Shown here: in pieces, positions 120-64,000 of the stretch
Numbering within the stretch: position 1 is the stretch's first letter
How the letters are laid out: each line of letters starts with the position of its first letter
NCBI GenBank assembly: GCA_905178155.1
Contig: CAJINV010000002.1
Coordinates: forward strand, 12,285,621 to 12,349,620
Reading direction: 5' to 3'
DNA from: Amoebophrya sp. A120
Lineage: Eukaryota; Protista; Dinoflagellata
Length of the DNA: 64,000 bases
The notes under the pieces: model-generated
What the model was told of the DNA's origin: nothing
The model's database searches: none
What the model saw: the letters and a program-made list of their open reading frames with translations, nothing else
Made by a program: the position numbers and the translations under genes

Positions 120-3100
120 CGACGAGGCCGGCGGCAGTGGTTGCGCAGAAGACGCAGATGCCCCGGAGCCACTACCACTCGCTGCTGCTTGCGCAAATGG
201 TGCACTGCTCGACGAGGAAGAACTCGAAAGCGTTCCTTGTCCTTGCTGCAGCGCGCTGTTGCTGTTCACGAGCAGGTGAGCAGGTGTTGCAGAGTGCACT
301 ACGGTTCCTGCAGATGATATCATGCCACCGACAACCCCAGCTCCACCATCGTCAAAGGTAGACCCCGCCACACTGGTGCCTGTTGAGGATCGACCACTTG
401 GAACCATTCCTCCGCCGAGCGTTGCCGATTGGTGGGAAACAGACGCCGGTATGGCGGGAAAATTCACGTTACTTGCTGACGAGCTCACACCTCCCAATGG
501 CCCTCCACCGACCGTGGTGTTCACCGTCGTGCGAATGCCCTGAGAGGCGAGCGCTGGCGCAGCAAACGGGTCGACCGAATGCCGCAAAGCCATGCTCTGG
601 AGAGGACCGCCACTGGTAGTGATTTATTTTTCTTTTTGTGAATATCAATTTTTTTGAAAATTTATCACAGATCACAGATACATTCGTTGCTGGAGTAGTG
701 AACTCTTGTGGTACCGTGCGGTTGCCAGCGATGCTCGTATCATGGCGTCCTCTGCGTCACGCGTGGATCTTCGCAGTGGCTCCGATTGAACCATAAATGA
801 AGCGGAGTTATCGAGGACCGTGCTGCCCAAGTTGTCTCCACCCCCATGCTCCATGACCCCGTCGAGCATTGTAGCGGAACCCCCTGCGAGGGGTCCCCCG
901 CCAACTCCCCCCGGTTGCCCCGCCCCGGGTCCTCGCTGCGGCAAGCCGAGTCCGAGTTGCTGCTGGTGCATGGTATTCAACACCTCGGGTTCGGGTGTGG
1001 GGGCAATCTGGTGAAACTGTGAAATTCGGTACACGATCTGATTGTACGCGTCTGGATATTTTTTCTTGACAATGTTGTTCAACGCGTCCGCGGTCAACTT
1101 CTCGGCAACCGTGTAGGTCTGTGCGCGGACGTACGCCGTCCGCTTCTGCCCCTTCTGGACCAGCGCAGTCTCGCCAAAGTAATCACCTAGGTTTGTTCGT
1201 TCATGACTTGTTTTTCTGCTCACTGGTGGCGGGTTGGACAATCCTTCTGTATCGGTCCATACACACATTTCAAGTTAGGTTTATTGTAGGTTCTGTTTCA
1301 TATATTGTGCGTCGTGCGCAGCTGTGGCGGGAAAAATAGGTGTACGTGTATCTATAAACAGGGAATACTACACCACGCAAGTTCGTGCGATAAACATCGT
1401 ACGGTGGAGACAAGGAGTAACTTCTACTCTAACACCAACTCTTGGAAGGAATATTTTTAGCACAAGACCACGACCAGAAGCACCTTCTCTTTTCTGTGCG
1501 ACGACGAGCTTATTTCGTGCGGTGGGAATGCCATTGGGTCCCGGCATGGAGTTTCGCCGGATGACGACGACGTCACAGAGACCGCGCAGAATGAAGTACA
1601 TTTCGAAGCCCTCCTGCCCGAACCGAATGATGTAGTCCCCCGGGGAAAACACCTCCTCGGCAAAGTTGTCGAGAATTTCAGCGACTCCGGCGGGGTGCAA
1701 GTCGCGAAAAAAGGGCGCTTTTTCAATCAGCGAGGCGAAGAGGCAAATCTTGATTTCCAGCACCAGTGCCTTCGAACTCGTGTTGTAGAGCAGATCGCAG
1801 GCCTGTTTGTCGTGCTGGACCTCTAGAAACTGGTGGTACATATTGATCCGCTATCAAATGTAAAAATGTCTGAGTCTGGAAGATTGCCAGGTTTGTCATG
1901 CACATTTTGCATGACTCCTGATGTCTATGATGCATGCCCTAGCGTCACAGATTTTCTGAAGGCTTCCTAATGCCTATTCCGCATGACAAATGCTCTTTCC
2001 GTGTTGCAAAACTTGGACTCTCTTTGCTGCTCATGCAATACAGATTTTTTTAGAATCCAAAATCAGCATGACAAGTTAGATTCTTCCAGACCCAGACATT
2101 TTTACAGTTGATATCCGCTTGTGGAGATTGGGCGGAAGCTTAATCTGCGTATGGGGCTCTCAAACGTTACATTCTCAACTGTTACATGATTTGTCATGCA
2201 AAAACGCTATCACTTTTCATAATTTCAAACCTTCTCCGCATGACAAGTTCTCGACGCGCTAGATAGCATTGTAATCTGCTCCAAACCTGTAACGCAAAAG
2301 GAGCAAGCTTTTCCCTTTCACTTTTGCCATTCTTGCATTACAAATTTCATGTAACAGTTGAGAATGTAACAGTTGAGAGCTCCATACTGCGTCATGGCCG
2401 CGTTGATCGCTGCCTGTTGCTCCAAAGTTTTACCTCAAGTCAATTTAAAATATGTTAGCTATGGCTGTGTATTGCGTGACGTGGACGTGAGCCCGAAAAC
2501 GAAATCGCCTTTTTGCACATAAATTTGCATACTCATCAAGATGAATAAGAATACAAGACGAACCCTGGTGCACCAGGAGGTCCATGACTGAAAACAGCAA
2601 CGCAAGATCATGTACGCTGTACTTTTTAAAATCATCATCCGCTGCTCGATGAGCACGATGCGTGCGAAAATGACGGCTTCGGCGAAAGCTCCGATGGGCC
2701 GGAGCATGGTGATGCAAAGAACCACGCTGCTGTCGTCTCGATCTGTCATAGAAGTTGGAGGGGAAGCCGAGAACAGGAGTACTGCATCGCGCAGGGCCAG
2801 AATGTAGAACCTGTAGTTTTTATTATGGAGGAACTGAAGCTGCAACTAAGCTGATACACTGATAGCGATTGATAAAAAAGATAAAACCCTGTTCTGCTTT
2901 TTCGCACGCCCGATGTAGAGGATGAGCGATGAGAATGGCGTGGAGGACGAGGCTAGTACTAACAACATCTTCACAAGACGAGTTGCATTTCCAATGCGCC
3001 AGGCAATCAAGTAAGTACTGTCTGGTGCACCTCCTAATGATCCTGATTTAACCACGATTCACACATACTGAAATCAGGCTCAAGCACAGCCAGGTAAACA

Positions 3101-5728
3101 AGAACGACGAGTCAATACTTCCAGACGGATATGTGTTTGACATCCGCTTCGTAGGTGGTTTCCTGATCTGTGTCATAGAGGACGTAAAACCAGGCGACGG
3201 CAAACAGGTGCACAAGCAGAAACATCATGAAGACGAGCTCTGCGCCGGCCCACACGCCCTGGCGGTAGGGGCTGATGACGACCCCGCCCTGACTGGCGGC
3301 CGCGCGGTCCCGCCGCACCGTTTCGTACCGCAAAAGCCGTAGCAAACCAAACCAACTACAGGCAGTCCTGGTTGTCGTAAATTTGATGTTGAATCAAAGG
3401 AGCGGTTTAAAAGTCACTCTTGGGACGAAGTAGTCGTCGTATCTACAGGCCGACTCTGCAACGAAAACTGGAACAAGGGGAAGGGCAACATGTCAGGACC
3501 AACGAGCATAATTTTTCTTCAGGTTCAGTGTAATGGAGGTCCCAGCCCAACTCGTACTACGAATAGCACCTCCACCAGGCAACAGCATTTGTCTCTGCCT
3601 CACCTTTTTCCGGACTGGCTCATGGCATCCACCCAGAGGAGGTTTCCTAGTAGAGTCAGCCAGTTGGCCCAGTACGCCGTTTTGCGGAACAAAATGCGGC
3701 GGATGTCCGCTGGCTCCACGTATTCCCGGCCCTCCTGAATCTCCACGATGCTGGTCCGCAGGGGAAAGAGCAACTCGAAGATCACGAAGGCAAACTCGGC
3801 CACCATGTCGAACACGAAGACTTCTAAAAGGTTGTCCGACCATTTCTTGGTCTTGTCCCCCGCTAACGGGTAGAAAAACCCGAGGTAGAAGGTGGTAAAA
3901 ATCGCGTTGTACAGCATCAGAATGGAGCACAGCTTCCGGCCGAACAGCAGCAAGTCGGAGTGCCCCGCGCGCCAAAACACGGACAAATGCGTGGGCAGCT
4001 TGCCGTACAGCTGCGTGGCAGTGGGGTTCACGCTGTCGGTGTCGGTGTCGCGAATCTCAAACTGGTCGAAGGAAAACCGGCTGAACTCCACCACCGCGCC
4101 GAGGTCTATCGTCGTGCTGGCCCGGGCGTGGTGGCCAGTGGAGAGCGACATGCGGCGGCCGATCGCCGCGCGCGCGCCCGAGCCCCCGCCGGGCCCGCTG
4201 CCGTGGTGAGCGCCCGTGAGCTGGTTGATCCGGCCCATGCTGCCCGGGAACATGGAGATGGAGAAGCTGCGCTTCCGCCCGAGCGTGGGCGGCGCGGTAT
4301 GTATCTTGCCAACCGTCACATTTCCGTCCACTGGTATTGCAATCAAAAACGCCCCCACCCCCGAACGTGGAAGCATTTGTATTGCAAACCTTTCAAAGTG
4401 AAACACTCGCCCTTTTGCATCTCTCAGCATCACAGATTCCCGATCGTGAATAGCAAAAATTTGCATTGCAAAAGATCCCTCCAGCAAAAGCGGCGCTTGT
4501 CATGCAAGCGATGCGATACTTACACGCCTAGACTCTGCATCAGAAAGGTTCGCACTCCTTTCATGCATGACAAAAAGTTTTTATTTGGAAACTTCGCATC
4601 ACAAATTTTTGCAACTTTGCGGGTGGTGGCATTTTTCCTCGCGATAACTGGCGGGAACTGATCGTCCTCCTCCCCGGTTCCGTCCGTACTGGCCGTTTCG
4701 TGCGACACGATGCTCATCTTTCTGGACCTGTCGCCGCCGAAGGGCTCGGACTTGCTCGGGTCCACCCCGGTTTGCATTTGCTTCCCATTCAGCTGCTTGC
4801 TCATCGCGTTGCTCGCCCGTTTTTTCACCTGCCGCTTGCTGCAGTGGTGCAGGTCTGCGGAGGCCATCAGAAAATCCTCGGAGGAACTGCTGGTATTCGT
4901 CCGCGCGTCTTTCCGCGGGTCCTCAGCACTTGAGCTCGACGCCGCGCTTGTGTGCTGTGTGTGGTCCACCTGCTGTGCGGAGGAGCTACCACCGGCCTCG
5001 TCAGGATCGGTCTTTTTCTTGATGGTGATGCCCCCCTTCGAGGAAGATCTCGTTGATATTGCCTGACCAGCCGCTCCGCCCGCGGCGGCGTGACGCACTG
5101 AAGGTTCCACAGCCTCTTTTTCCATTTCGTTGTCAAAATCCTGCAACAAAGTCCTCCGGCCTTTCGTGTTGCTACTTTTATCTTCATGGTCGCGCGGATC
5201 TTTTCTGTGTCCGCCGGCACTCCCCGCTGGTAAAAACGGTGTTGCGTAGGAACAGCTTGCCTCGAGTCCCAAGTGCTTGTCAACTCCTGCGCCTTTTCCG
5301 ACTGCACGGGCTAATGTCGTACTAGCTGTACTCGCGCTGAAAGGTGTAACGGTCGCTGGACCAGGTGCATTTGCTCTACCTGCTGGTGCTCGATCTACTT
5401 CATCGGCGTTTGGATTTAAAAATCCTGTTTGTGTTTCCAGCCCGGTCGTGTTGTAATTCGAGCTGTTTGTTGCATTTCCATACTTGCGTGCTTCCTCGAC
5501 GACGACGCGGCCCGCTGGTCCTCGCGCTCCGGTTCCGACCCTACCGCCGGGTTGACGCTCTTCAATATCGTCCGCGCCCGCCTGGTGACGGAGCGGTGCA
5601 TGGGGAGATTGAAACCCACTGTCGGCATAATCATCTTCCGTCAGCGACACCTGGTCATCGTGTAGTACCTGGCCCCGTGGGGTTTCCCTTTTCTCGTTCT
5701 CGCCAACCCTCGTCTCGTCCCCGACCAT
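120..5728 (-). CDS. Cyclic-nucleotide-binding 6TM cation channel (CNG/HCN/EAG-like), multi-exon, 3' end outside the window
   Basis: Spliced exons give TM helices, S4-like WFGLLRLLR, C-linker TQIKLPPNLHKRINMYHQFL (only after introner removal) and a cNMP-binding domain (APFF...FSPGDYIIRFGQEGFEMYFILRG...GDYFGETAL...RTAYVRA). It has GT-AG introns plus 4 introners. Start codon is tentative. Confidence 0.85.
1852..2113. mobile_element. Introner family A (262 bp), non-canonical intron in the channel gene
   Basis: TIR tatcaaatgtaaaaatgtctgagtctggaag / cttccagacccagacatttttacagttgata. Direct repeat tccgc at 1847-1851 and 2114-2118. Removal gives in-frame LHKRINMYHQF. Confidence 0.95.
2150..2386. mobile_element. 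Introner family B (237 bp)
   Basis: About 40-bp TIR tatggggctctcaaacgttacattctcaactgttacatga. Direct repeat ctgcg at 2145-2149 and 2387-2391. Removal gives AAINAAMTQIKLP. Confidence 0.95.
4335..4646. mobile_element. Introner family G (312 bp), diverged TIR
   Basis: tattgcaatcaaaaacgcccccaccc versus reverse complement of the right end tatcgcgaggaaaaatgccaccaccc. Direct repeat actgg at 4330-4334 and 4647-4651. Removal joins ORFs 4520-5740 and 3600-4487 in frame (QFPPVDGNV). Confidence 0.88.
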
Positions 5729-7196: not shown

Positions 7197-9725
7197 CTAC
7201 CTAGAGCCAGAAGTGACTGTTGATGAAAGGTTCGCTTTCACTCGGTTGCGCAACTGCAGCTCCTCCGCCAACTCACGCAGCTGCCTCTCCCGGTCGTTTC
7301 GCGTGCCTAGCATCGACTCTGTGTGTCCGGGGACGGGCCCCGCACGGTAAATCAGATCAAAACCGCCGACCCGGGTGATCTGATCGTGGTAGTCCAGCGC
7401 GTTGCCATTTTCGTCTACCTGCGCCAAGTACTTCTCCAGATCCAGAATAGTCAGCACGTCGTCCAGTGTGGCGAACTTCATTTCGTAGTCCGCCTTCGTG
7501 TTGGCGGTCAAGGACGGGCTGGCGTTCACCTCAATCAAGGTGGGGTTAAAGTGCGAATCGATCATGATATCGTAGCCGTACATTTCGAAGCACTTGCGGT
7601 CTGCAATCATCACCCGCTGCACGGCCAGCAGACTGTAGATGATGATTTCCTCGAAACGATTGAAGAGGTCGATGGTGCGCTCACGGCCGATTTTGGAGAT
7701 CAAGTACTGCTTCATCCGCGGGATTTCCCACTTGCCGCCGGTGCGCTGGTAGGTGTTGTCCTTGGAGAAGAGGTTTTTCTGCACCGCCACGTTGGTCAGG
7801 TGCGAGGACAGCTTGGTCGGGTCCCGCACTGTGTCGACCGAGTATCGGGTCAGGGAAAACCGCGCGAACCCTTCTCGACTCAGCCACACGGTGAGCGGCT
7901 GGTAGGAGGTTACTAGTGCATAGATGCGCAAGTCAAACTTCCGCCCGCCGATCAGCAGCGGATTCTCGATGTACTTTTGCACGATGTAGGATTCCGCCGG
8001 CCCCTCGTCGGGGTCGAAATCGTTGCCACCCGCGCCCGCGCCGCCGTAGCCGCCATCGCCCCCGCCGCCGGCGCCGCCCCCGGTCGCGGGCTTCCAGTTC
8101 GCCAACTGGCTCAGCTTGGTGACCATGAAGATGCCAGTGCCCTGACTCCGGCCGACGGGCTTCATAATCCACACCTGCTTCCCGCACCGCCGAAACTCTT
8201 CGACGAACATGCTGTATTCCTGAGGCAGGAGAAACGTGATGGGTATCATCTCCTCGTACTTTCGGGCCGTTTCCAGTGACTGCGCGCTACCTTCCTTTTC
8301 CAACGCACGCTTGTGCCGCTTCACGTTCTTTGCTAAGAGGTCCTTGCGGGTCAGCTCGTAGTGGTTGCGAAAATGGTTCACGCGCTGCCAGGGCTCCAGG
8401 TGCAGCTTTTCCAGCTCCCCGTGAATCCAGTCCTTGTCTGCCCAGTGGATGTGCCAATCCTGCTTCAAGTGCTTCGTGCTCACCGCGCTGGTACCCGCAG
8501 GAGCAGCCACTGCACCTCCGCCAGCACTCGCGGATGTTGACGTGCCTGTCGCTCCTGTAACCGCAGAGCCACCACCGCTGGCAGTACTCGCAGGACCTCC
8601 CAGCTGTCTGGCACTTCCGGGCGGAGACGTCGTCGGGGGTGTGCTCGAAGAAGCAAGGAAAGAAATCGGTTGACCGCCCATACCAGATGCGCCGCTAGTA
8701 CCAGGTCGCGCAGATACAGATGAACCTCCTCCCTTCGTTGCGGCAGTAGGTGTTGTACCCGTTGTACTGCAGCTGGTGGCAACTACCCCCGGAATGCTGT
8801 CATTAGTCGTTGACGCAGACGCACCGGCACCAGATCCTATAGCAACGCCCCCAGAAGTGGACATTGTGGTTGTTGACGAAGCCGATTGCCCCGCTCTCCC
8901 GGTTGCACTCCCGCGGCGAGCGACGTTTGAACTCGACGCAGCAGCACCACCTCCTCCCGTTCCTCCGCCTTCCGTGCCGGCCGCGGCCGACGCAGACGAA
9001 ATCACGGACGCGCCGCTATCCTGAGTAAAAACGTACCCACACCAGAGTCAAGATGGGGAATCGGCTAGACAAATCCACAAGTTTTGGCTGTTTTGCATGA
9101 CAAATTTGGATTCGTAGTGTAGTGCTGTTTGAGCTAGCTCAGCAGCATGACAGATCTAGCATATCATGCTGATTGGAGCATGACAAATTGCAAAACACGA
9201 CTAGAAAACGCTTCTCATGGGGCTCCGCATGAGAAACATTTTCAGCATGCAGATTTGCATGACAACTATGGTGTGGGTACGTTTTTACTCAGGATAACCG
9301 CTGCGCGGGGTCCGCGGCGACGGCAGGTCATCGACGCCCCATTCCTTCCACCCCCGGCTCTTGAAAACGTCATTATGGAGAGAAAAAAGTTTGTCACAGT
9401 CATGTCACTAAGTTGCAGATTTTGCATTACAAATTTTTTTAGCATCACAGCTTCTCCTTGTATAATTGCAGAAACACTAGGGAAATCCCTTATGAAGTGT
9501 GGCTGTGATGCATTTTTACGCATGACAGACAATTTTGTATTGCAAAAACGCCCATTAGTGATCGTGACGAACTTTTTTCTTTTGATAGTCATAGATGGTG
9601 TTGTAGTGCGAGCTTCCCTCCCCCGTAACCGCGTCCGTGACGCGATGCAACTTGGCGCAACGAAATTTGATCTGTTGCCACGGCGCCGGATCCCGTTTAA
9701 TGATGCGGCGAAAATGCTCGGACAT
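7197..9725 (-). CDS. TTLL9: Tubulin polyglutamylase TTLL9-like (TTL family), 3 exons split by two introners
   Basis: Motifs IKFR...NTIYDVFKSRGW (restored by introner removal), HFRNHYELTRK, WIMKPVGRSQG, KFDLRIY, HLTNVAVQK, FEMYGYD and EVNASPS. Confidence 0.85.
9017..9296. mobile_element. Introner family C (280 bp)
   Basis: TIR tatcctgagtaaaaacgtacccacacca / tggtgtgggtacgtttttactcaggata. Flanks gccgc and accgc (4/5 match). Removal gives PRTPRSGASVIS. Confidence 0.93.
9374..9587. mobile_element. Introner family D (214 bp)
   Basis: TIR tatggagagaaaaaagtttgtcac / gtgacgaacttttttcttttgata. Direct repeat gtcat at 9369-9373 and 9588-9592. Removal gives NTIYDVFKSRGW. Confidence 0.92.
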
Positions 9726-45374: not shown

Positions 45375-48300
45375 TTAGGATTGGAAGTACTGGTAGTCGA
45401 GGATGAAGCTCCAGAACTTGTAGTTTCCGGTGGGTAGGGGCTGAAAGACCGGGATTTCAACCAACCCGAAGCGGGTTTTCATCGCATCCACACCGTCCGT
45501 GCCCAGAGCGACGAAGGCCGTTCCGGCTCCGTAGATGATCTGAATGGCAGCGATGACCAGCAGGACCCAGTGAAAGATGCGTTCGCCAAGCGATCGCTCC
45601 GTCTTGTAGACGACGGCGTAAGCGAGGAGCGGGTAGGGAACCTTCACATTTATGTATTTTTACGGTAAACTCGTGTCTAGTATGGGCGGTATCGACAACA
45701 AGTTCCATCTGTAGAACTATTTTCATATTGATCAAGCTGCAATCCAATGGCGAGTACATCACACAATTATTATGAAGAACTGCGAGTCACCTGCCCAATA
45801 TGCAACCAAACCTAGCACGAACTTCGCGAAAAGTTAGAAGAGTACCTAGCTCTGATTCGCTATTTTTGGTCCTATGTAGTAAACGCAAAAACTCAGAAAA
45901 AGTACCTGAGTCAAAACACAGCCGAATGCCGCGACGAGATCGACGAGCTGGCCGAAAAAGGGAACGACCCACACGATCAGGGCGGCCATCCAGATGATTA
46001 GGGTACGGCAGACCTTCGATTTTCCCGGGGGCACGTCCTCCACGGTTTTTACCTTTGCGAACTTCATTTCCAGGTGCAGCAGCGTGCTGTTCATGATCAG
46101 GGCGAAGGAAATGAACACGTTAACCACGATCATCAGTGCGACCGTGATCCCCTGCCAGGAGGCGGCGTTTCTGTGGTTCGCCGGGTTCACAAAGTCGTGT
46201 CGCATGGAGTCTACGATACTGCTGTCAATCGCGGAGCCGTAGGTGAGGTAGCCGCAGATGCCGACCACGAAGTAGATGAACGCAATGGTGAAGGAGGACA
46301 TGAGGATGGAGCTGACAATGGTGCTGGGTTCGACCATGCTGGTGTACAGCGCGGGGATCATCATGACGAAGGTGAAACTGAAGAACACTTTGTTGACGGG
46401 GGCGACGATCCAGGACAGACTGGCGATGGTGGAGGACCAGCCAGAAATATTTTCGGTTCGCGAAGCGGGGAAAACCAGTTGGTTGGTGATCGGGAGATCC
46501 AGGAGAATTCCGTCCGCACTCTCGTTGACGACGCCCGCGGTCGTTGACGCGCTCGAGAAGTATGCGGGATACTGTTGTCGCCAGCTTGCTGTGTCATCCG
46601 CGGTGTAGGCCTCCGCGCACAGAACCTTTCTCGGCTTTTGGGTGGCTTGTGACTTGCTGTCGAGGTCCGGAACGATGTAGGTGAAGTGCAGTGTTTCGAA
46701 CGGTGCGGTCGTGGCGTCGGACTTGTATTCCAGCGTGCATCGGTTGTTGGCGCGGTCGACCCCGATGGCGGTCGGACCTGGAACGATGTCCTGCGGCAGC
46801 CGTTTTGCCGCGCTGCTCATGATCTGCAGCGCGTCCCGCTTGCCGTTCGCCGTGGACAGTGCGCGTTCCCGGGTCACCTCCTGCCAGGACAGGGTGTCGC
46901 GCTCGTCCGCCGACAGGGAGTCGTGAAAGTGTCGCAGCTTCTCCGTCAGGCCGGCCACCTTGATCGTCAGCAGCTCCACGTCAGCGGGCAATGCGTCAGC
47001 CCTGCTCGCGGCGGCGCACAACTCCTGATATTTGGCGCGGTCAGATTCCGCCTTCTTCCGGTCCTCATCACTGACAGTGGTTGTGTCGGTGTTTTTCGGG
47101 AGGGCGGGGTACCGCCAGTAATACAACGCGTAGTTGTCCATGCGCGTCAGCCAGCACCCATCAACGCCCTCCTGCGCCGCGCACACGAGCTCATTTTCTG
47201 GCGTTGCCGGATTGAGGCAGGCCTGCTCGATCTCCTTCAGCAGGGTGTAATCCGCGGCGACGGTGCCGTCTGGCCGCGTGTACTGGTAGGAAAGCTTGTT
47301 GCGCACAAATTCGGGCGGGGAAACCTCCTGACTTAAGTCCAGCGCACTCACGACTGGCAGCTTCTGCTTGGTGTCTGAAACTGCCACACGTTGCATGCGC
47401 CACTCGACCGGGCGGTCTTGCATAATCAGGTAGGAATTAAACTCGTTGCCGTTCGCTTTCGCGTTCCTCTCGCAGAAGTCCGCGTCCACGTCCAGCGTTT
47501 CGGGGATCGCGCCTGTAGTAGAGGTCAAAATAAAGTTGTGCGATGCTTGACCTTGCTCCTAACTGCAAAAGCCGTTTTATATATAAACCATCTTTACTAG
47601 AGAGCGAGAAACACAAACCAAAGTCGAAATTCGACAACTACAAAGTAGAAATACAGAAACTCCTCGACAACAAGAACAACAGAAAAATAATCGCTTGAAT
47701 ACTTCCATCCGTCGGCTTCTGAACGGCGACGCGTAAATATTCAAGAAAACCCTGCCACTCCGTTCTTCCGCTGTCCGCTTTTCGTGAGGTGTACCAGCTA
47801 AATTCACAGGCCTTCTCGCCATTCGTCTCAAAGTAGTAGGAGTCTCGCTCGTCCGGAAATGTGTCCCAGCGGAAAACCTCGCCGGCAATCCCGGTGCCAG
47901 AGAGCTCCACGACGGCGTCCTTCAGCAGGGTTATCCTTCTCGCCGACACGCTGGGCATGGTTATGGCGTTCTCAAACGTTACATTCTCAACTGTTACATG
48001 AATTTGTCGTGCAAAACTACCTTGAGCCGGTAGATGATCAAGCTGCTTCGCATGACAAATCTCCGAAGGGCTAAACAGCACCTAAATCGGTGCCAAATCT
48101 GTGATGCGAAAGCAGCAATTTTTGCACCTTTGACTGTTGCGGCTCTTGCATCGCAAATTCATATAACAGTTGAGAATGTAACGTTTGAGAACGCCATAAT
48201 GGTGTCGGGCGGGTTCTGCGTCAAGTCCCGGTGATACCACTGTCCGGAAATCCAGGCGACTGGGGTGTAAAACGCGGCCTCCGTGGCGGGGAATTTGTGC

Positions 48301-50575
48301 TCCTCTACGACGGTGCCATCCGCGTTACCGCCGGTCGAAAACGCCAAGGTCGCTTCGCCCCGCACGCCCTTTCCGGTGTCGCTCATTTTCACCAGTTCCA
48401 CCTTTCCGCTGTCCGTGAGCAGGCAGCTTTGGCCGTATTCACAGCTTCGGTAGGGGGCCCACTTCGGGAAGTCGAGGTACTCGTTGTTCACGTCGAAGGG
48501 CTGGGCTTTCATGTCCAGGACAAATTTCCCGCCCGCGGGCTGGTTTGCATCCTGGCTTACGGTTTGCAGTTTCCTGCCACTACTGATGTCCGGGTTCTCG
48601 CTGACGCCACGCGCACTGTCGGTACCCACCTCAGTGAGGCCCGTTCGTCCAAAGTAGTCGTTCACCTCGCCTTGCTGCGGACCAGCGAACAGCTTCAACA
48701 AGGAAGCAGACTCGGTGTAGGCAGGACCGTTGAAAGCGACCACTGTGAAAAGGAGTTAGTGTTTGGTGTATATTTATTTTTCCGGCAAATGCTAAACATG
48801 TCTTGTCTATAAGCAGCAAGGTCTCAGAACGCAGGAGAATCTGAATCAGGAACAGGAAGAGAGCGTGATTATTGAAAGTGAAAGTATACCGTACGTAAGC
48901 AAAATCATATTTTCGTGGCACAAAAGAAAACAATACTGGCATCATCTCCGGTCTTAGCTGGATTCAGGATGGAGTTGAGCGCAACCACCAAAATGACCAC
49001 GATGCAGCTGAGCCATGCTACAAAGGACACCCGCGCGAGCACGGACACGTCCCTCAACCAGCACAGGAAGGTAAGAATCAGGGCCACCGTCACAATCCAA
49101 CCGTTCTTCGTCAGAGCCGGAATGTAGTCGAACAGAATCACGAAGTTCATGGCCAGCAGCAGCATGAACACCGTTCCGACCAGAATAATGAAGGTATGGT
49201 AGAACTTGGAGTAGACTGTGATGCAAATTTATTTCGTAACATTTTATGAATTTATGTGTTTGAGGAAAAGCATAGCTGTACTTGTAGTACAACAATATCG
49301 GTACAAAAATGTATGAGCCTCAGCGTCCTTGCAGTAGTCAAAGTCAAATTTCGAACGTGAATGGAGATGAAAATCATAAAAGTTCAGTACCAGCCGCCCA
49401 GCACTTTCCGAACAGGACCTTTGTTAAAGATCCCATCTGCGACATATCCTCTTGATCGACATTCAGGTCTTCAATACGCTGCATCACTTGTGCCTTTTTT
49501 ATTGCCGCCACGATGGATGCAGCAGTGCAGCTGTCATATTTTTTCATTTGCATTTTATCAAGTTACTGATGTAATTTGATCGGCATTTGCAAAACGTTCA
49601 ACATCATTAAGTTTCTGCTGAAGATGGACATCACGAGGCCACGCAAAGACGAAGACTTTCTTGTTAGAGCGCTCCGAGGTGAAGCAGTAGGTGCAAAAAA
49701 ACATGTTCAAGTTCATCATCAAAAGAAAAAGATTTGCAGTTCCAGCACTGCAGCAAAAGTTGCAAATACAAGGCCAGGATGAAGATCGCTGGGACGTAAC
49801 CCGTGGACTGGAAAACGCTTGGAAGGGTAACGATACCGGCCCCGATGTATCAAATGTAAAAATGTCTGGGTCTGGAAGAATGCAACTTGTGATGCTGCGT
49901 TTCGATGACTAAAAAATTTGTGTTGCATGAGCAGCAAACAGAGTCTAATTTTTACTACGCGGAGAGGGCATTTGTCATGCGGAATGGGCATCAAGAATCC
50001 CTCAAAAAACCTGTGATGCTAGGGCATGCATTACAGGCATCATGGGTCATGAGAAATATGCATGACAAGTGTTGCATTCTTCCAGACCCAGACATTTTTA
50101 CATTTGATACGATGGCCGTTGTGACGATGGAAAAGATGGACTCCCACCAGGTCGTAGTCCTTCCGAATCCCGCGCCTGGGTCGGAAAGGGACCCCCTTGA
50201 TATCATATGCAAAAATGTCTGGGTCTGGAAGAATGCAACTTGTCATGCTATATCTGAAGCATGCAAAAATCTGTGTTGCATGATTACCAAAAGTCGTCCA
50301 GTTTTGGACAAGTCGGGAGGGAGTTTCTCATGCAGGATAGGCATGAGAGAGATCGCACAGAATCTGTCATGCTAGGTCCTGCATTCCAGGCTTCATGGGT
50401 CATGGAAAAGCTGCATGACAAATCGCGCATTCTTCCAGACCCAGACACTTTTACATTTGATACTTGACCTTGAGGAACCATCGCTGTCGCTCTCCGCATG
50501 GGACTGCAGAATGCTTTTGTGGCTTTTATACGAAATCCGGCTCAGCCCCGAGGGCGGGATCAGCGGTGCCGTTTC
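45375..50575 (-). CDS. Amino acid/auxin permease (Aa_trans, SLC36/38-like) with a large loop insertion; first exon not located
   Basis: TM1 motif SIFSIVTTAIGAGIVTLP (restored by introner removal), LCWLRDVSVLARVS, FSFTFVMMIP...M..P, VGICGYLTYG and VPFFGQLVDLVAAF. N-terminal ETAPLI fits an acidic dileucine sorting motif. Confidence 0.85.
47962..48198. mobile_element. Introner family B (237 bp)
   Basis: 45-bp TIR with 1 mismatch (tatggcgttctcaaacgttacattctcaactgtta[c/t]atgaatttg). Direct repeat atggt. In-frame removal gives PPDTMPSVS. Confidence 0.96.
49848..50109. mobile_element. Introner family A (262 bp)
   Basis: TIR tatcaaatgtaaaaatgtctgggtctggaagaatgcaac. Direct repeat cgatg. Splits the TAIGAG motif. 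Confidence 0.96.
50201..50462. mobile_element. Introner family A (262 bp)
   Basis: Family A TIR. Direct repeat cttga at 50196-50200 and 50463-50467. In-frame removal gives GSSRSRGSLS. Confidence 0.95.
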
Positions 50576-51359
50576 CTGTGAAGATCAAGATTTTGATGTA
50601 GTAGATGAATTGGCATTGGGTTCTGGAGGTTAATATGGTTTCTATCATGTAGGTTTTTCTCATCTTCATGATCATCCCAGCAGTGATTTTGAAAGCGTTC
50701 CATACGAGAGCAAAAAGATCAATACGCTCTGCCTGCTTTTTCGTGAAGGCATTTTGGTTCTTTTGTTTGCGGTTGCAAAGAGGCACGAGGCAAAACAAAC
50801 TCACATAGGTGGAAAGAATCGGTCGTAAGGTGGGAAAGCTTGTCAAGAGTTAGTTTTCATTTTCAATCTTAAGTAAGGTTATGTGAGTCGTGTCAACATG
50901 AATGCAGCGAGGTAGGAAAGCAGTACAAGTGGATGTCAGATCGCAAGTTGCATGCAACAACGTCTTCACATGATAAGACAAACCCTGCAGAACCATTCAA
51001 CTTCTAGGTTTTCATAAGGAAGAGCCTTGCTGAGCCAGAAACTCAGCTTGATCTTCCATTTTTTCTGCGCAATTGCAAGTTGAATTTGAAACCGACAAAA
51101 GTGTTGTACCGGATCCATAAGACGGAGCGCAAGATCTTTCAATATTTAGCAATGACCTTGTGGGGCTGTTTGCTGTCGCGATAGACTTTTTTTTCAAATT
51201 GATCGCAATTTTTGCAAACAGAGGCGCCTAAGCTAAGTACTTAAATACTTTACAAACGAAGCATTTACAGAATCTGATCATCTACAGCCCCCTTTCTTGC
51301 CTCTCAACAGATGGAAGGCTTGTTATTTGCGATCTGATGTATTCAGTACACTCTAAAAC

Positions 51360-51929
51360 TCAATGGCCGATCTGAATTATGAGCATGCCTCGACAGCATG
51401 GTTTCTGCCCAACACTACTTTGGCCTATCGTGCAAGACGCGCTCTGTTTGATGTGATCAGAACCGCAACAACGGCTTCTAGAATATTGCGATATATTGGT
51501 ATTGCGTTGTGTTTGAACCGAATGCAGCGAATCATCTTCCGTTCCATCAAGAATCATAGATGGCAACAGTATTTTTGCAATCTTGCGGTGGTTCTTTTGC
51601 GCCTCTCATCCTTCTCCCTCAAGTCTGGGGAGGTAGTTTAAGCTCATGACCACACAACCTGCAGAGAGCAGGAAGCTACATGAAACCCACTGGTTGGTTC
51701 CCGTGGCCGCAACGAAGCTTTCCCAGCCCGGGGGCGCGGCCTGTGCCTCTTTGCTTTCCATCGTCGCCAAAAACAGTATGAAGGAGAGCACCATCATCCC
51801 GGCGCCGCTAAGAAAAATGTACGCGCTGCGGCCGGCTCGGAAAAAGGCAAGAAGTCGCTGGACGGTGTTCTGTCTGTACTGGATCAGATATATCACGAAC
51901 TTCCGGAAATATTCTCGGAATACCGACAT
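51360..51929 (-). CDS. Possible small TM protein or exon(s), hypothetical
   Basis: ORF 51606-51929 has a hydrophobic helix (AYIFLSGAGMMVLSFILFLA). Boundaries are uncertain. Confidence 0.35.
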
Positions 51930-54462
51930 GATGGTTGGAGATTTTAAGACTTTTAGTAAATGGCTCTCGCTATCAAGTAGAAGTCAAGGTTTAAGCTTTA
52001 CAAGGGAAAGCGGCTAATTGGCGGGCGATTCGAACTTTTCCAAAACTTTTCATTTGACTTTTCAGGATTTCAGGGCATTGAAAACGATTTGATAAAGCGA
52101 GTCAGAACGAAAAAACGCAGTGAAGATACTCCAAGCGACAGAACAGGGGCGCTTGCGAGGTCTTGGGCGCCGACGCCTCCTCTTGTCCCGCGGGTGATCG
52201 GCGAATCCCGAGCGACCGCCTTTCCACCCGCCGAAGCGTGCGCGCGCGCCGGGTACCCGCCGACCGCACGCAGCCAACGGCTGCCGGCGCGGGCGCCCTA
52301 AAGAAAAAGGCCATGACCGCCCATCGCACCCACCCGCCCCCCAGGCCCGGAAGGCCTACCCGGGAACTGACTAGGAGGAGGGCTACCGACACAGGGAAGG
52401 GGGCCGGTCCGCCAGACCCTAAACCCGACGCAACCGGGCACCCGGCAACGCGCGCCCTCGCCAAAAAACGCGCGCGCCCAAGCCTCACAAACACCCGGAA
52501 TCGCGGCGCCAGCCCGCGCCTCCTGCCGCCGGCGGGCCGCCACCGCGAAACGGCCCGACCCTGGCAGCTTTCTTAATGCAAAGCAACCACCGGCCAAAAG
52601 CTGCCGGCGGTGTGTGCTGCTGTTTCGCGCTTTTCCACATGAGGAAGATCAAAGCGCGCCAGCCTGTTGGGCTTTGTTTGACTTCAACGAACCGCCGGCG
52701 CCGGGTTCTATCGGTCGCCGGCTGATAATACTAACGACACAGGAGGGCCGACAAAGAAAAGGGGCACCCCGCTGAGGCGCCGGCCGCGTGGGGTTCTGGC
52801 GATTTGGGGCGCGCAAAAGAGCGCCCCAAAAAACTCGCGGCAAATCAGAAAAGCGAAGCCGCACGACAGGGCCGGGGCTCCGTTCGGAGCATTTGGCCGG
52901 CCGCGAAAGCGGCCGCCGCCTTTTCGCCGGTTTCTATGCGGCGGAAGCTTTGCAAAGGGTGCCGGCGCGCAAAGAAAAAACACAGAAAAGCAAAAGCGCG
53001 CCAAGCGCGCGAGGCCAATCCCCATGCCATGGGACCGGTTTGCCTTCGGTTTCAGGGCGCTCCACCGCGGCGCCCGGATCGGCCCCATACCGCCAGGGCT
53101 AGCTTTCGGACAGGGGTTCTGAAAATTTGGCAAAGAACTACCATGCTTTCCAAAAGACGGCCAAGCCACGCGGCATGGCCATACCAAAAGCGGCACGGGG
53201 GGCCCAGAAAAAAGACACAGTGGCTGGCCAGGGCAACGGCCGGCGGGCGGGCAAGGCAGCCAGCGGCACCGACCTCACCACCTCCGCCACGGAGGCTATA
53301 TTTGGCACGCTGGGCACACGCAGCAGCGGCTTACCGTCCGACAGCCCCACACGTAGCAAGCAAACAGGCCCCGAGGGTAACTAAGCCCCCACGACGTCCC
53401 CTCCCCTACGTCGCACGCAGGGGCGCAGTTCCGCCCGTGCACCAACCACATCGCCCGGCGCCCCAACATGGCTCGCCCCGCCCGAAACGGTGTCGAGCGT
53501 GCCATGCGGTCCGACGTCGGACCGCACGGTATGCTTGTCGGAAAAGCAAAACAGCAAACGCACAGGCCCCGGCTGACCAGATAGAGACGAAACAGATCGC
53601 CCAATCCCGGCCCACAGGGTGGGGCGCAGGGCGAGCGAAGGGCGAGACGAACGACGGGTGGCAATCGGGCCGCCGGCACGTAGGAAGTAGACCCGCGGCG
53701 GCGCCGCCCGGTATTCCAGGCGCGCAGGCAGGCCGGCGGGGCCCAACATGCAGGCGCGCCCCCATATCAGAGGGCGGGAGGCCCCCAGACAGGCCGGCCC
53801 CGGCCGGCTGGCGCCTGGCGGATGCGGCGGAATCGCTTCGGCGCCCCAATAACACGCCTCCCCCGCCCGGGCTCAGCAGTGCGCAGGGAGGCGCCACGCC
53901 CGCGCGGCTGTTGCCGGCCGGCACACTGTGGCCCCGGTCTAGGTCGGTCGCGGGCGGGGGGGGCGAAGGACTGGCGCGGCCGGGCCGGGTGTTCCTTCCG
54001 TCTATGGGTTTGGGCAAACCGACGCCAACCCCAGCGGCGCCCGGGCCCCCAAGAGCCCGCCGGCCGCCGCAAGTGTGGAGTACGCGGAGCGCATGCCCCG
54101 CACGCGCCCCGAACGGCGCAACGCGCCAACCAAGTTCAGGGGGTCGGTAGCAACCGCCGAAGCCCGGGCGCCCTCTCTTGGTTCGCAGCAAGCTACACGC
54201 GCACCGGCGCCCCCGGGGCGTGAATCCGCTGCCCGGTGGCGCATGCGACAACGTAGCGCCGGCCGCCCGCCGGGGCGGGGCCGGCCGCTTGCCTGGCTAC
54301 GTGCGCAATAACCGCAGGCGTGCCTGCCGGGGGGCTGTGCCTGCCTCTTTTCGGGCGCAAGGCAGCCGCCCGAGGGCGGCCCGGCTGGCGGGCAGGAACA
54401 AAGGGCAGGCGCCGGGCGGCGAAACTTTTCCGCCCCTCTACCGAAAACTCTGCCGGAAACTT

Positions 54463-54680
54463 TGCCGAGAACTTGCCGAAAACTTTCCCCCGAACTTTCC
54501 CGAAAAGTCGGCGAAAGCCTTCCGCGAAACCTTCCCGAAAAATTCTCCCGTTGAAAAGTCGACCAAAAGTTACAGACCGGGAGTTGAAAAGTCAGCCAAA
54601 AGTTTTCGAGTCCGAAAATGATCCCGAAGCGGGAAAGTTTCGGGAAAGTTCGGGGGAAAGTTTTCGGCAAGTTTTCGGCA
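54463..54680. repeat. 43-bp inverted repeat built from ~11-bp ccgaaaacttt-like units
   Basis: 54463-54505 versus the reverse complement of 54638-54680 has 1 mismatch. Confidence 0.9.
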
Positions 54681-56207
54681 CTCAAGCAGAAGACTTCGCC
54701 GCGCCCTCAAAAGCCGAAAAGCCTGAAGGCTTGCGCATCCGCCAGGCTTGCGAAGAATCCTGCTGCCCCCCCCCTTTTCTACATGGCTGAGGCGGTCTCC
54801 CCGAAAATGGGGACAGAGCCTCCTGGGCGAACTTATTGCGCGCGCCGGCGGGGCAGCATGTGAGTGGCGCCCCGCGCGCGCCCCTGCTGCGCCGGCGCCC
54901 TTTCTACTCGCGAAAAGCCGGCCGCGCAAGGCCGCCGCGACCGAGGCGGAGCACTCGGGAGCGGCGGCATGGTCTCGGCGCTTTGTATGTAAGTGCGGGG
55001 GGGCGGCGAATATGAAAGAGAAAGGGGCAGGCCGGACGGCCTCTAGCTAGCGCCCAAAGAAAGGCGCCGAGCCAAAACGTGAGGCGCGGGCAGCTCCACC
55101 GAAGCGTAGCGCGCCACGCCATGCGGCCCGAACGTGCGAGGCCGGGCCGCCCGCGCGGCGTGCTGCGCGCCTACTTCAATGCGCCAAATATGGCCGCCGG
55201 GGCGGAGATAATGAGGCCGGCGCCGCTTCTTTGCCCGCCGACCTTGGCCCACACCACTTTTTTGCTTTTTCTGGGCCCGCCGTGCCGGGGTGGGTAAGGT
55301 TATGCCGCACGGTATGGCGGCCGGTTGGGGAAAATGGCAGACGTTGGGCAACTTGCCAAAACGCCTTCCCGAAAGCCAACCCCGATGCTATCGGGCCGGC
55401 CCGGGCACCGCGGGGGGCGCCCAAAAACCGAGGGAAAAGCGGGCCCATAGAATGCGGGCTGGCTTCGCGCGCTTGGCGCGTTTCTTCTTTTTTGCGTTGT
55501 GTGTTATTTTTCGCGCCCGCGCCTTTTGCAAAGCTAGCGCCCCCCCGCTGAGAACCCGGCAAAAGGGCGGCCGCTTTCGATTCGCGACCGGTTTCGCGGC
55601 CCTGCCATACTTACGGCTTCGCTGTTCTGGCTTCGGGCGGGTTTTTTGGGGCGCCCTTTTGGGCGCCCCAAGTCGCGCGCCAGAATCCCACGCGGCCGGC
55701 GCCTGAGAAGGGTGCCACGTTTGCCGACCCCCCTACGTCATTTTTTCAGACAGTCTTTCCACCGGCGGCCGACTGAGCCCACCGGCGACTGCATTCATTG
55801 AAGACAAAACCAAACAGGCGGGCGCGCTTGGGTTTTTTTCATCTTCAACATGCGAAAAAATGCGAGCCAACGCCCCAAGCCCCCGGCCGTTTTTGGCGGT
55901 TCTTGTCAGGAAAGCTGCAGAGATAGAGCCGGCTCACGGGGTCGCTGCGGTACATCTTACAAGAGAAGGCAAACCACCCAGGCACACAGGCTCGTGCTGG
56001 AGGGCAACATACCAGAGGGGCCACGGGGCCCCGCCCGCCGGCTCGCTTGTGGGGCGGGCCACCCGGGGGAGTTGCGTTATCCATTTCCTGAACCAAAGAA
56101 CACCCCGCCGGGGAAGCCCACCCAACCGGGGGGGGTCGGCCCCACATCGCGATGCATGCCGCACGCACGGACGGCCTGGCGCGAGAGGCCGGCCCACCAT
56201 CGCGCGC

Positions 56208-56243
56208 CATACCATGCGGTCCGACGTCGGACCGCATGGTATG
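56208..56243. repeat. Perfect 36-bp palindrome (related copy at 53502-53529)
   Basis: cataccatgcggtccgac|gtcggaccgcatggtatg. Confidence 0.95.
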
Positions 56244-57698
56244 CTGCCTCTTTGCTTCTCTCGTTCAAGCAGGCGAAGCAGAATAGACGGGCAACCGAAA
56301 TAGACAGGTGGCGCCACCACAGCGCGCCACAGACCCACATCACGCGCCGGCCATCGGGGTGGCCCCCCGACCGCAGGCCCTTGACACTTCTGCCACCGCT
56401 AGCGAGACGAGCGGAGGAGCCGCCTCTGCCCGTTGGTTGCAAAAGGGGGGCGCCTTTGGCGCACGCTTCGGCCGCGTCGCGTAACCGCGGAAAGGCGGGC
56501 AGGAAACAGACGGCCGGGGCGCGACGGCCTCTATTTTGTAAGAATGGGCAAGCGGCGGGCCAGAATGTAGGGGGCCGAAGGTACGTCGGACAGCGCGCGG
56601 CCGGCGTGCCATCCAAGACACCGCGGCGGGGCGGCGCGCCCATTCGGGCCCTGGCAGTGGCAGCCAGTGCCATTGCTTATTTAAAAGGCGCTCAGGGCGA
56701 AGAGGGCCGACGCGCCCCGGCATTTCCGAAGCGCGAGGCGGCGATCAACATCCGGGCGAATACTGAAAGGCCAAAGGCCAGCGCCCGCGCACCACTTCAA
56801 AAGGTGCACAAAATGCGCACAGGGCCCCACAGCGCTCGCGAATAATCGCGAACAACCGACCACGGAGGCGCTGCCCGTCCGATGCGCGGCGGGTGGCATT
56901 TCCCGCAGCCTGCTTGGAGGCGTCGATCAAAATGGCAGGCAGCTGGCGGGCACACGCCGCGGCGAAGAGGTGCCGCCCTTTCATGCTCTGCCACTCCCAA
57001 AGTGCGGACTTACCAGCAAAAGGCAGCACGGTCCAAACAATTGTCGCAAAGCATGGATTGCCGACGATCAAAATAGCGACTTTGCCAAAAGTCAAAGTAA
57101 AAGTTTTGGAAAAGTCGCTATCCCGTTTCAATTACCCGTTTTCCCTTGTAAAAGCTTGTTGCCTGTAATACTTCACCTCCCTCCAGTAGCAGCGTCTGAA
57201 GTCTTTACTTGTACTGGGCAATACCAGACAAGAACAAATGGGCAAATTTTGATTACGACCACTGTAGCTTCACACTGGTCGACGCGAAGTCATTGCAAGC
57301 GCTCGTCCTCTCCTGAACCAGCCTAATCAACTTGCACCTCCTTTCTTTCAGATGATCATGATTCAAATCCAGTAGTGCGTCGTTTAAATCGCGCTAATTC
57401 AAAGATACAAGCGCACGGCACGCGTTTGAAGCATCATGAACAACAACTTCAATTTCAATTGCTGTCACCGTCGTGCGGCATTAATGATGGGCGTTTCAGG
57501 CGAAAATGCGACAGGGCGAGTCATTGTCTCCTTACCCGTAGTTTAGTCGGTTTTTTTTTCCGCTTTGCGCCTGTCGTGCACTGGAATTGCTCCCAGGAAC
57601 TCTGACTCTGTAGGGATCGCCCCAGGTAGCGGAAAGAACAAACCAAACGAAACTTACAGTCAATCACAGGGATCACAGGAAAGCAGAAGCTTTTGAGT

Positions 57699-60619
57699 TC
57701 ATGTGTCTTTGTTATCCTGCTCCACCAATAGCGCCAGAATATCGTCCCATCTCTCGTCGTATCCGGCCTGTTGAAAGTGCGCGATGTACCGCGATCGGAT
57801 CAAGCGATCCACTGCTGCGGGCTGCTCCAGGACATCTTTGAAAACGCGTCTCTCGATGATCCGCATCACGTCGGCAAGGCACAGCGTGTTTCCGGTTAGC
57901 AGCTGCAAGGAGTCCAACACGCGGAGTATCCTGAGTAAAAACGTACCCACGCCCGAGTTGTAATGCAGATTTGCAAAGACAGGAAGACTTGTAATGCGCA
58001 TCCCCATGAGAGCCATTTCCAGTCGTGTTTTGGAATTTGTGATGCTGTGAACAGGATGAGCAGACGAATCTGTGATGCGGCTGCACTTGCTAACCTGCAC
58101 TACACTGCATAGTGCAACTTGTCATGCGTGACTCCCAAAACTCCTAGGTTTGTGTTGCAAAATCCCCATCTTGACTATGGGGTGGGGACGTTTTTATACA
58201 GGATACGGAGAATGTCCACGTGCGGCGTTACCGGCTTCGGACCTCTGCCTTGGGCTGGTCTTGCTATCCTGTGCAAAAGTATCGTAACGTACTCGTATGG
58301 AAATCATGCATTACAAAATCCTTTGTTAAGGTAAATCAGCATTACAAATTTTATTTCTCATGCTGAGGAAATTTGTAATGCATTTATACGAGTACGATAC
58401 TTTTGCAGTTCATACTTGCGCCCGCAACACCATGCGTTTTTGATCGCGAATCCACGACTCGTTGTCCCCCTCCTGGCGAGCTGCAAGAACCTGCAACACC
58501 CCCAGATGTGGATCCTGCGGAATTACTCTGGGATGAATGTTGCTTGATTGCATTGCACAAGATCCAACTCTGTCCGGAGACAGACAACAGTTCCTGCTTT
58601 CCACGGGCTGCAAATGCGTCAAACGTTTTCTGATACTTCTTGGACACAGAAGAGTCATTGGTCTGCCCAGCGTGAGCAGGGCTCTGCAGGCTTTCCTCAG
58701 TTGTAGTTTCGTTCCGACGGGAAGTGGTTGGAGACATGGAAGAACCGCAAGAAGCCCCCACGATCTCCTGACTGCGGGCCCTTTGCTCGCGTTCCGCAAG
58801 CTCCTGCGACATGCCGCGAGTGTACAACAGGGCCGTCGAGTTCAGGAGCTTTGCAAGCTCCGCCGCCGGGAAGTTGCTGTGTGGACTGTTGCTCCCGGCG
58901 CACTGACTATCCATCTCCTGCAGCACACGATTTGCGAACACCGCCAGGTCGTGCAACGGAAAAGCTATTTCCCATCGACTGAAGACAACCAAAACCGCCG
59001 TCAAGTCCTTCAGCTCGAACAGATGCAGCGAGCTCAGAGAGTACTTGCGAATCTTCGCGTATAGGGAGCGGAGGAGAGAAAGCTTCTGCTCTACCTTCGT
59101 GCTTGAAGTGGAAGGATTTTGTGCGTTGCAGCTGACCACTGCAACATGTTGACCAGTGTCTACAACTTTGCGAAGCCCGGTTTCGTCAACATTGCTCCTA
59201 GAAGTGCTGCCCGTCTGACTAATGTTGTCTGGACTAGGCGAGGAAGAGGTTGATGTCGTCTGCGCAGTGTTCGCGAGCATTTGCGTTTGCTCCAGTCTCT
59301 GCGCTACGGCCCGATAGTACTCCAGCAGCATGCCGAAGGCGTATGCTACCGTTGAGAGCTCAGCGGGGGTGTTGAACAGAAGTTTCTCGCCGGCGCTGCT
59401 TACGCAATACCGTACGAATTGTTCCTCGTCCATGCCGCACCGTGCGAACGAGTGGATCACGCGGGCAATTTCAAGTGGCGTTGCCTGTTTTAGGTTTTAG
59501 CGTGTACCAGAAGTAGTCGGCTCGAGTGACGAAGTTTTGGTTATGGTTCCCCTTCATCACTCCAATCGGAATATATTAAAAAAAAACCGTACTCTATACA
59601 ATTGCAAAGACGTATAGGAGTTGTATGTCGACAAAAGCAAAGCATCAAGCTTAAACTCGTGACGACCCAACAACATCACAAACGGGTTCGGCTGTTTTAC
59701 CTCGCCGATTGTGAACTTGGCGTGGTAGGCAATGCTCTCAAAGAGTCTCTTGTCCTGCACTACAGCGGCGTCCGCAAAAGCTTTCGCGATGACGGACAGG
59801 TCGCGGATGTGAAACGGCTCCACTTGCATGCGGGTTTGCAAATGCGTGGAAAGCCTTTTCCACAGTTCGTCGTCATTCAGTTCAAGCTTTGTAATTGCGT
59901 TAATGAACATGGTTTGCTCCGTGGTCTGTTGCAAGTCCGGCACCTGTGATGTTTTTTGTGTTGAGGGTTGATGCAGCAGCAGTGCAGGCAGTCTTGGCTG
60001 AGTCTCAATTTTGGCCACTACAAGTACCAACCAGCGTAGCTGGCCCACATAGGAAGCATAATCAACAGTGGGTCATATAATCAGTATGATCTTCTTCATG
60101 TTCTATTATACCCGTATTTTCAACTCCTTAACCATGACCAGCCGCTCGGATTCTGTCAGTTTCAGGCCGCATTTTCCGAACGCCGATAGCATCATGGCCA
60201 GATAGGTCGCATTGAAGTACGCGATCTTCTCGAAGAAGAGCTTGCGAATCTCGCCCTCGGGCCCGACAATCATCGGCAAATACCGTTTATCAAATGCAAA
60301 AATGTCTGGGTCTGGAAAAGTGTAAACTTGTCATGCAGGTTTTTCATGACCCATGAGGTCTGGAATGCGGGACCCAGCATGACAGAGTCTGCGAGGTCTC
60401 TGCCATGCCTATCCTGCATGAGAAACTCCCTCCAAACTTGGTCTAAAGTGGACAGCTTTTGGCACTCATGCAACACAGATTTCTGCATCGTTCGGATTTA
60501 GCATGACAAGTTGCAATCTTCCAGACCCAGACACTTTTGCAATCCATACCGTTGCCGAAGCGGAACCTGCCGCGAGGCGGACGACGAGGAAGATCCGCCT
60601 CCACCGCTCTGGGATTGTC
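57699..60619 (-). CDS. Helical-repeat protein (HPR/OPR/FASTK-like, probable organellar RNA binding); 5' exon(s) not located
   Basis: Repeats such as FNATYLAMMLSAFGKCG, FHIRDLSVIAKAFADA, TPLEIARVIHSFARCG, TPAELSTVAYAFG and FELKDLTAVLVVFSRW. Three introners are removed in frame. Confidence 0.65.
57927..58205. mobile_element. Introner family C (279 bp), inverted relative to the 9017 copy
   Basis: TIR tatcctgagtaaaaacgtaccc / gggacgtttttatacaggata. Direct repeat cggag. Removal gives VDILRVLDSL. Confidence 0.94.
58265..58414. mobile_element. Introner family F (150 bp), inverted relative to the 15731 copy
   Basis: tatcctgtgcaaaagtatcgta / tacgatacttttgcagttcata. Direct repeat cttgc. Removal gives VAGARPAQG. 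Confidence 0.92.
60288..60548. mobile_element. Introner family A (261 bp)
   Basis: Family A TIR. Direct repeat ccgtt at 60283-60287 and 60549-60553. Reverse-complement homolog of 50201-50462. Removal gives PLRQRYLPM. Confidence 0.94.
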
Positions 60620-63929: not shown

Positions 63930-64000
63930 AAAGTAATTCTGTATTGAAGGCCAGTAAGACGGCGTCGTCGTTCGTTTTTGTTTCCAAAGAAGATGAAAAT

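Follow-up and report, generated by a model that had tools for sequence, protein, structure and literature searches.

Inventory of TAT...ATA elements in the window

We analyzed a 64,000-nucleotide (nt) stretch of Amoebophrya sp. A120 (contig CAJINV010000002.1, positions 12,285,621 to 12,349,620; hereafter the window), in which coding exons are interrupted by short elements with TAT...ATA ends, terminal inverted repeats (TIRs), and flanking direct repeats, known as introners. The 64-kb window was searched with a strict scan for TAT...ATA ends, a TIR match of at least 13/20, and a perfect 5-bp flanking direct repeat. This recovered 13 elements, and the same scan of 20 block-shuffled windows gave 1 match in total. 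A 14th element (9017 to 9296) has a repeat that agrees at 4/5 positions only (GCCGC/ACCGC). These 14 elements span 150 to 321 bp and form seven BLAST groups, in agreement with a first-pass annotation made from the sequence without database searches, which had described 14 elements of about seven families; its statement that all of them have 5-bp repeats holds in perfect form for 13. At the ends, TAT is followed by 7 variable nt and then a run of A, with group B showing CAAA/TTTG and a shorter A run. Two older elements, beyond the 14 of that annotation, lie at 28493 to 28677 and 41133 to 41349. When the repeat was not required, a loose TIR scan gave 45 matches in the window versus 23 to 64 in the shuffles, that is, chance level, and the two old elements therefore rest on the RNA joints described below rather than on a scan. 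In the main host exons, the Pfam matches to TTL and Aa_trans lie above the cut-off and those to cNMP-binding and MIB_HERC2 below it. The features, with the evidence for each in parentheses, are as follows.

1 to 119, minus: introner cut by the window start, of the group of the element at 1852 (79% to it in BLAST)
1852 to 2113, minus: introner, group A, repeat TCCGC, in a cNMP-binding (channel-like) gene (strict scan, Pfam, frame check)
2150 to 2386, minus: introner, group B, repeat CTGCG (strict scan, frame check)
4335 to 4646, minus: introner, single, repeat ACTGG (strict scan, frame check)
9017 to 9296, minus: introner, group D, 4/5 repeat with a synonymous difference, in TTLL9 (absent from A120 protein model P0084)
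9374 to 9587, minus: introner, single, repeat GTCAT, splitting HYNTIYDV of TTLL9 (P0084 and the A25 ortholog P0001 align over the junction)
15731 to 15880, minus: introner, group C, repeat TCCCG (strict scan, frame check)
28493 to 28677, minus: older introner, 4/5 repeat, in a MIB_HERC2-like gene with a weak Pfam match below the cut-off (joint 28487>28678)
40485 to 40743, minus: canonical GT-AG intron sharing a transcript contig with three non-canonical ones (joint 40484>40744)
41129 to 41350, minus: exactly mapped non-canonical intron AT...TG, comprising the old element 41133 to 41349 and its sense-strand flanks of 1 nt (5') and 4 nt (3') (joint 41128>41351)
41745 to 41996, minus: introner, group A, repeat CAGCG (joint 41739>41997)
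42044 to 42364, minus: introner, single, repeat CCCCC, with an unused in-frame GT-AG option of 323 nt (joint 42038>42365)
47962 to 48198, minus: introner, group B, repeat ATGGT, in an amino-acid transporter region (strict scan, Pfam, frame check)
49848 to 50109, minus: introner, group A, repeat CGATG, splitting TAIGAG (strict scan, translation)
50201 to 50462, minus: introner, group A, repeat CTTGA (strict scan, frame check)
57927 to 58205, minus: introner, group D, repeat CGGAG (strict scan, frame check)
58265 to 58414, minus: introner, group C, repeat CTTGC, with an off-register GT-AG option (strict scan, frame check)
60288 to 60548, minus: introner, group A, repeat CCGTT (strict scan, frame check)

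Reading frames and GT-AG options

A coding model placed 14/16 elements (the 14 and the 2 old ones) in minus-strand coding sequence; those at 47962 and 49848 came out narrowly plus, and the Aa_trans matches around both sit on the minus strand. Deletion of an element with 5 nt left the minus-strand frame open on both sides in 16/16 cases (best minus frame chosen), bearing out the first-pass claim that removal of the element plus one repeat restores the frame inside coding sequence, and retention led to a stop within 5 to 43 codons in 16/16, TTLL9 included. Among the conserved motifs said to be rejoined, HYNTIYDV is aligned to both the A25 ortholog and the A120 model, and TAIGAG and the channel C-linker are rejoined by translation alone. 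Sliding the boundary through the repeat yielded GT-AG in none of the 14 elements over 6 registers and 2 strands, as had been noted, and one AT-AC option (at 49848). The GT/GC...AG ends of U2-type introns were found in 0/14 in any register. That earlier account missed an off-register (+3 nt), in-frame GT-AG option at 42044 and at 58265.

Removal of the elements from transcripts

Contigs of runs X1 to X4 (two samples of one study, with an RNA label that is a guess and an uncertain independence from the published annotation) were aligned to 28300 to 43100. We recovered 13 joints, each in 4/4 runs, of which 9 are GT-AG and 4 non-canonical; since the nine GT-AG introns are spliced out, the contigs represent spliced RNA. 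Each non-canonical joint skips an element plus 5 nt: 41739>41997 (257 nt = 252+5), 42038>42365 (326 nt = 321+5), 41128>41351 (222 nt = 217+5, 0 ambiguous letters), and 28487>28678 (190 nt = 185+5, 2 ambiguous letters). One contig per run carries one GT-AG and three non-canonical joints. Thus, precise non-GT-AG removal alongside canonical splicing, a central claim of the first-pass annotation, is supported, and in the transcript alignment it had proposed, allowing non-canonical junctions, the covered elements are skipped and the nearby in-frame GT-AG at 42044 is unused. Removal is covered for 2/14 elements by RNA contigs, for 2/14 more by P0084, and for the two old elements. From 41300 to 61000, copies of repeats crowded the list of joints, and RNA gave an answer for 2/8 elements there. 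The raw-read runs X8 and X9 placed 78 and 4 reads, nearly all of them partial matches to element copies.

Reverse transcriptase switching templates over a hairpin and direct repeats would give the same appearance while the true mRNAs keep the elements. A hairpin plus a direct repeat is a typical setting for such artefacts, cDNA-only "falsitrons" exist, and the RNA evidence here consists of assembled contigs. Nevertheless, the 41128>41351 joint shares no letters and ignores a 2-letter match left in the decayed repeat, the non-canonical joints share contigs with canonical ones, and retention brings a stop within 43 codons in every case; we consider this explanation very improbable. Excision from DNA at certain stages of the life cycle, as with the internal eliminated sequences of ciliates, would fit the TA-rich inverted ends and the precise restoration of the target site. 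Against this, contigs of the DNA-like run X5 reach 24 to 27 nt into elements at 9 ends (depth flat at 43 to 53 in unique bins), the runs without elements are also without GT-AG introns, and the assembly of a relative contains hundreds of intact elements. The X5 joints were judged among the matches listed, so that rare DNA joints are possible, and we give this explanation slightly less credence still. Even combined, artefact and DNA excision have only a small share of the probability.

Several features of the canonical transcripts are recorded here in their own right. The nine canonical introns (28800 to 40744) are mostly without a polypyrimidine tract (pyrimidine share, 0.41 to 0.76), and 7/9 are preceded by an exonic AG. 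Inside the canonical intron 28801 to 29220, the segments 28826 to 28859 and 28990 to 28998 are matched by contigs from elsewhere in 4/4 runs, possibly marking a relic repeat. Within the canonical intron 40485 to 40743, a weak TAT...ATA pair (10/16) at 40529 to 40713 is possibly a decayed introner, at chance level. An X2 contig of 8374 nt spans an EF-hand gene and a long open reading frame (ORF) with a methyltransferase domain (29221 to 39567, minus); overlap or read-through is possible, and a single transcript is not implied.

A larger sample from a relative

A pattern scan of a relative, with no flank in common with the window, gave at least 148 stretches, of which 145 (400 kb) were analyzed. 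As the sample was found via the end of one family, family sizes in it are biased; its element counts, here and below, are among the matches listed. The direct repeat is exactly 5 bp in 245/337 end pairs and agrees at 4/5 positions in 44; by length, exact flush repeats number 245 for 5, 3 for 4, and 5 for 3 nt. TAT plus 7 nt plus AAA fits 422/490 ends. Repeat positions 1/5 and 2/4 are complementary no more often than by chance (62 versus 63 and 57 versus 63 of 245), and the C...G look of the 14 repeats in the window is therefore small-sample noise. The elements thus have TIRs, a target-site duplication (TSD) of fixed length, and no coding capacity, like miniature inverted-repeat transposable elements (MITEs), as the first-pass annotation had them. 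Eight elements of >340 bp contain stop-free stretches of at most 151 amino acids (aa) and no long ORF, and some are probably nested. An autonomous partner transposase with matching ends was found neither in the window nor in the 400 kb of loci, and viral contigs gave no TIR match. Three long elements (L057:3001-4031, L061:3001-3972, and L041:3315-3945) that have end motifs in their interior and are flanked by a perfect 5-bp repeat are likely nested introners.

We could orient 148/245 exact-repeat elements by a clear margin. In these, G precedes TAT in 43 versus 46 in the mirror position (p 0.80), with no sense-strand excess of GT or AG; AG stands at the 3' cut in 11/148, and GT-AG is available in any register in 10/148. 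The largest cluster lies in genes in both orientations (45:36). An internal motif, TGT[CG]ATGC, is found 42 times within the window elements (3.3 kb) versus 4 times in the 60 kb outside and is present in 229/245 locus elements and 0/9 canonical introns. As it is absent from both old, still-removed elements, a role in transposition is more likely for it than one in splicing.

Position of the cuts

A perfect repeat hides the cut sites, so that it is the decayed repeat of the old element at 41133 to 41349 that gives an exact position. On the sense strand, this intron reads A-TAT...ATA-GGTG and so takes in one flanking nt at the 5' end of the element and four at its 3' end; an in-frame AG one base past the 3' end is unused in the contigs. 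At 42044, an in-frame GT-AG intron of 323 nt is possible, yet the contigs skip 326 nt. The joint at 28493 is compatible with 3/6 registers, the 1/4 register among them. At locus L004 of the relative, the two repeat copies disagree at base 5, and a 92%-identical A120 protein (residues EG) matches the downstream one, which excludes a flush 5' cut, provided that the homologue reflects the exonic base. Repeat mismatches in 27 oriented elements fall at positions 1 to 5 in the proportions 9, 6, 6, 3, and 3, which is suggestive only. Two further loci were uninformative: a homologue search for L034 found none, and L123 yielded just a gene predicted on an unspliced contig, plus homologues that agree with net removal but not with the register. 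All nine top non-canonical motifs of A120 in Table S4 of Farhat et al. 2021 (PMC7789003) have T as the second base. Hence, the likely register places the cuts one base before TAT and four bases after ATA (N-TAT...ATA-NNNN); exact in one case and compatible in two, it is a lead rather than a rule.

Proposed route of removal

We favor, at a probability of about 50%, a separate route in which the elements are cut out and the exons ligated under guidance of the element ends, without the spliceosome. A DNA transposase would insert the element with a 5-bp target duplication, as the repeat suggests. The element would then stay in DNA, consistent with the nine ends in the DNA-like run, and leave the RNA with 5 flanking nt, as at the four joints. 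The cuts would follow the 1/4 register, whose extension from one exact and two compatible cases to a general rule we think somewhat better than even. They would be placed from the symmetric ends, through either the hairpin or the TAT-N7-AAA sequence, and not from GT/AG, and a putative endonuclease and RNA ligase would do the chemistry. As the elements work in either orientation and GT/AG is neither supplied nor preferred, the symmetric ends are the most likely site of the signal. In predicted folds, +2 pairs with -5 in 6/8 elements tried, both old ones included.

The main competitor is a modified U2-type spliceosome, which would accept NUAU as a relaxed donor and use the paired ends to define a 3' site that lacks AG. 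It would draw on machinery reported in A120, namely, U2, U4, U5, and U6 RNAs and 83/89 spliceosomal proteins (PMC7789003), although these small nuclear ribonucleoproteins are required for the canonical introns anyway, and it has a precedent in Fritillaria with a divergent U2AF (bioRxiv 2025.08.15.670264; PMC11282704). It is at odds with the AG adjoining the stem, which is bypassed twice, with the first and last two intron bases, which are unconstrained in the 148 young elements, and with the scarcity of branch-like motifs (CTRAY in the last 50 nt of 5/148 elements versus 3/9 canonical introns). Moreover, in 6/8 elements the predicted folds would place the donor region in paired sequence from about +2 onward. 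We regard it as a serious possibility, less probable than the separate route.

Several observations weigh against the separate, end-guided route. In the mapped register, position +2 is U and NUAU resembles a GUAU donor, which suits the spliceosome. So does A at -2: 8/9 of the Table S4 motifs are NT-AN, which suggests a preference for A there or else a second, symmetric register, although no such register is seen here. A figure legend in the same paper describes the splice sites as variable relative to the hairpin. An AT bias of repeat mismatches, used as a register test, was null (13:14; 36/44 imperfect elements). The contigs, from two samples of one study under a guessed RNA label, reveal the main form only. 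Finally, stem positions 4 to 10 are paired in just 878/1204 cells, and among stem mismatches read on the sense strand, G-U does not exceed A-C (112 versus 134; 172 elements). On this null result, recognition of the hairpin and of the end sequence are equally likely and indistinguishable. Of the "second, structure-guided excision route" first suggested for these elements, the second route is therefore favored at the odds given above, and its structure guidance gains no support from this test.

More tentatively, A120 could have a second, non-spliceosomal machine that measures from the transposon ends to a fixed register of 1 nt/4 nt, disregards GT/AG even in frame, and arose independently of the similar one of Euglena; we hold this fuller version to be less likely than not. 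A fixed register would reduce "highly variable splice sites" to one rule. If true, it predicts the exact ends of the excised RNA, which makes a lariat-versus-circle test easy to design, and would explain harmless insertion in either orientation at nearly any site.

Other repeats in the window

Apart from the introners, a GC-rich repeat of about 5.1 kb (51993 to 57157) has inverted arms of 71 nt at its termini (80%) and of 750 nt in its interior (69%), centered near 54560. Its summed X5 contig depth is 240 to 1270 versus about 45 in unique bins, it contains a 471-aa ORF without a Pfam match, and it looks like a foldback-type element. A second GC-rich stretch (about 62050 to 64000) has a 123-nt hairpin (62950 to 63071) and a 59-nt inverted pair (62095 to 62153 with 63872 to 63930).

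Comparison with known systems

The best match of the TTLL9 exon is from Amoebophrya A25 (75%), and the A120 model P0084 is identical to the exon; once the 9374 and 9017 elements are removed, P0084 matches the window TTLL9 at 100% over all 418 aa. Farhat et al. 2021 (PMC7789003) reported that 65% of A120 introns are non-canonical, with 29,850 repeated ones, direct repeats of 3 to 5 nt, and inverted repeats opening with TAT, followed by seven variable bases and a run of three or more A. From the P0084 match and the TAT-N7-AAA ends, the window elements are this published introner system in the same organism, and the class is already known; the first-pass annotation pointed to the right literature, which proves to be more than a parallel. 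Both accounts share these ends, direct repeats (5 bp in the legend of Fig. S19), families, and RNA-supported non-canonical removal, and the hairpin model was already put forward there. In contrast to its 3- to 5-nt repeats and unknown or variable border, the repeat in the window directly abuts the TIR and has a constant length of 5 bp, and the position of one border is exact. What we add is thus the constant duplication, the 1/4 register, and two cases of a canonical option passed over. In the portions of the literature on Amoebophrya introners, splicing, and U1 that were available, we found no later account of the register or machinery; figures S19 to S25 of Farhat et al. or Roy et al. 2023 might hold one. 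Gozashti et al. 2025 (PMC12130899) likewise ascribed introners of the same genome to TIR DNA transposons; their A120 family 38, with TIRs and an integrase-like ORF, is a candidate type of mobilizer, and no ORF-bearing copy was found here. Strains Kv and AT5 use GT-AG introns (PMC12005148).

The MITE-derived introns of Fritillaria borealis are likewise non-GT-AG and have TIRs and TSDs (PMC11282704; bioRxiv 2025.08.15.670264). They prefer AG-AC/AG-AT ends and are removed by the spliceosome (PMC11282704; bioRxiv 2025.08.15.670264), whereas the young elements here have no preferred end dinucleotides. The non-conventional introns of euglenids, like those here, have paired ends and TSD-like repeats, lack GT-AG, and coexist with canonical introns (PMC12501133; PMC11282704). 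The spacers are fixed in euglenids and probably here, the 3' one being 2 to 3 nt longer; in Euglena they are N3 and N5-6, and the motif is CAG/CTG (PMC12501133), versus TAT/ATA at N1/N4 here, in an unrelated lineage. The euglenid code N3CDG...CHG N5-6|R is not found at the ends here, which read N-TAT...ATA-N4. Circular excision products are reported for Euglena (PMC11282704; PMC12621601). The A120 introners may thus work like euglenid introns without being members of that class.

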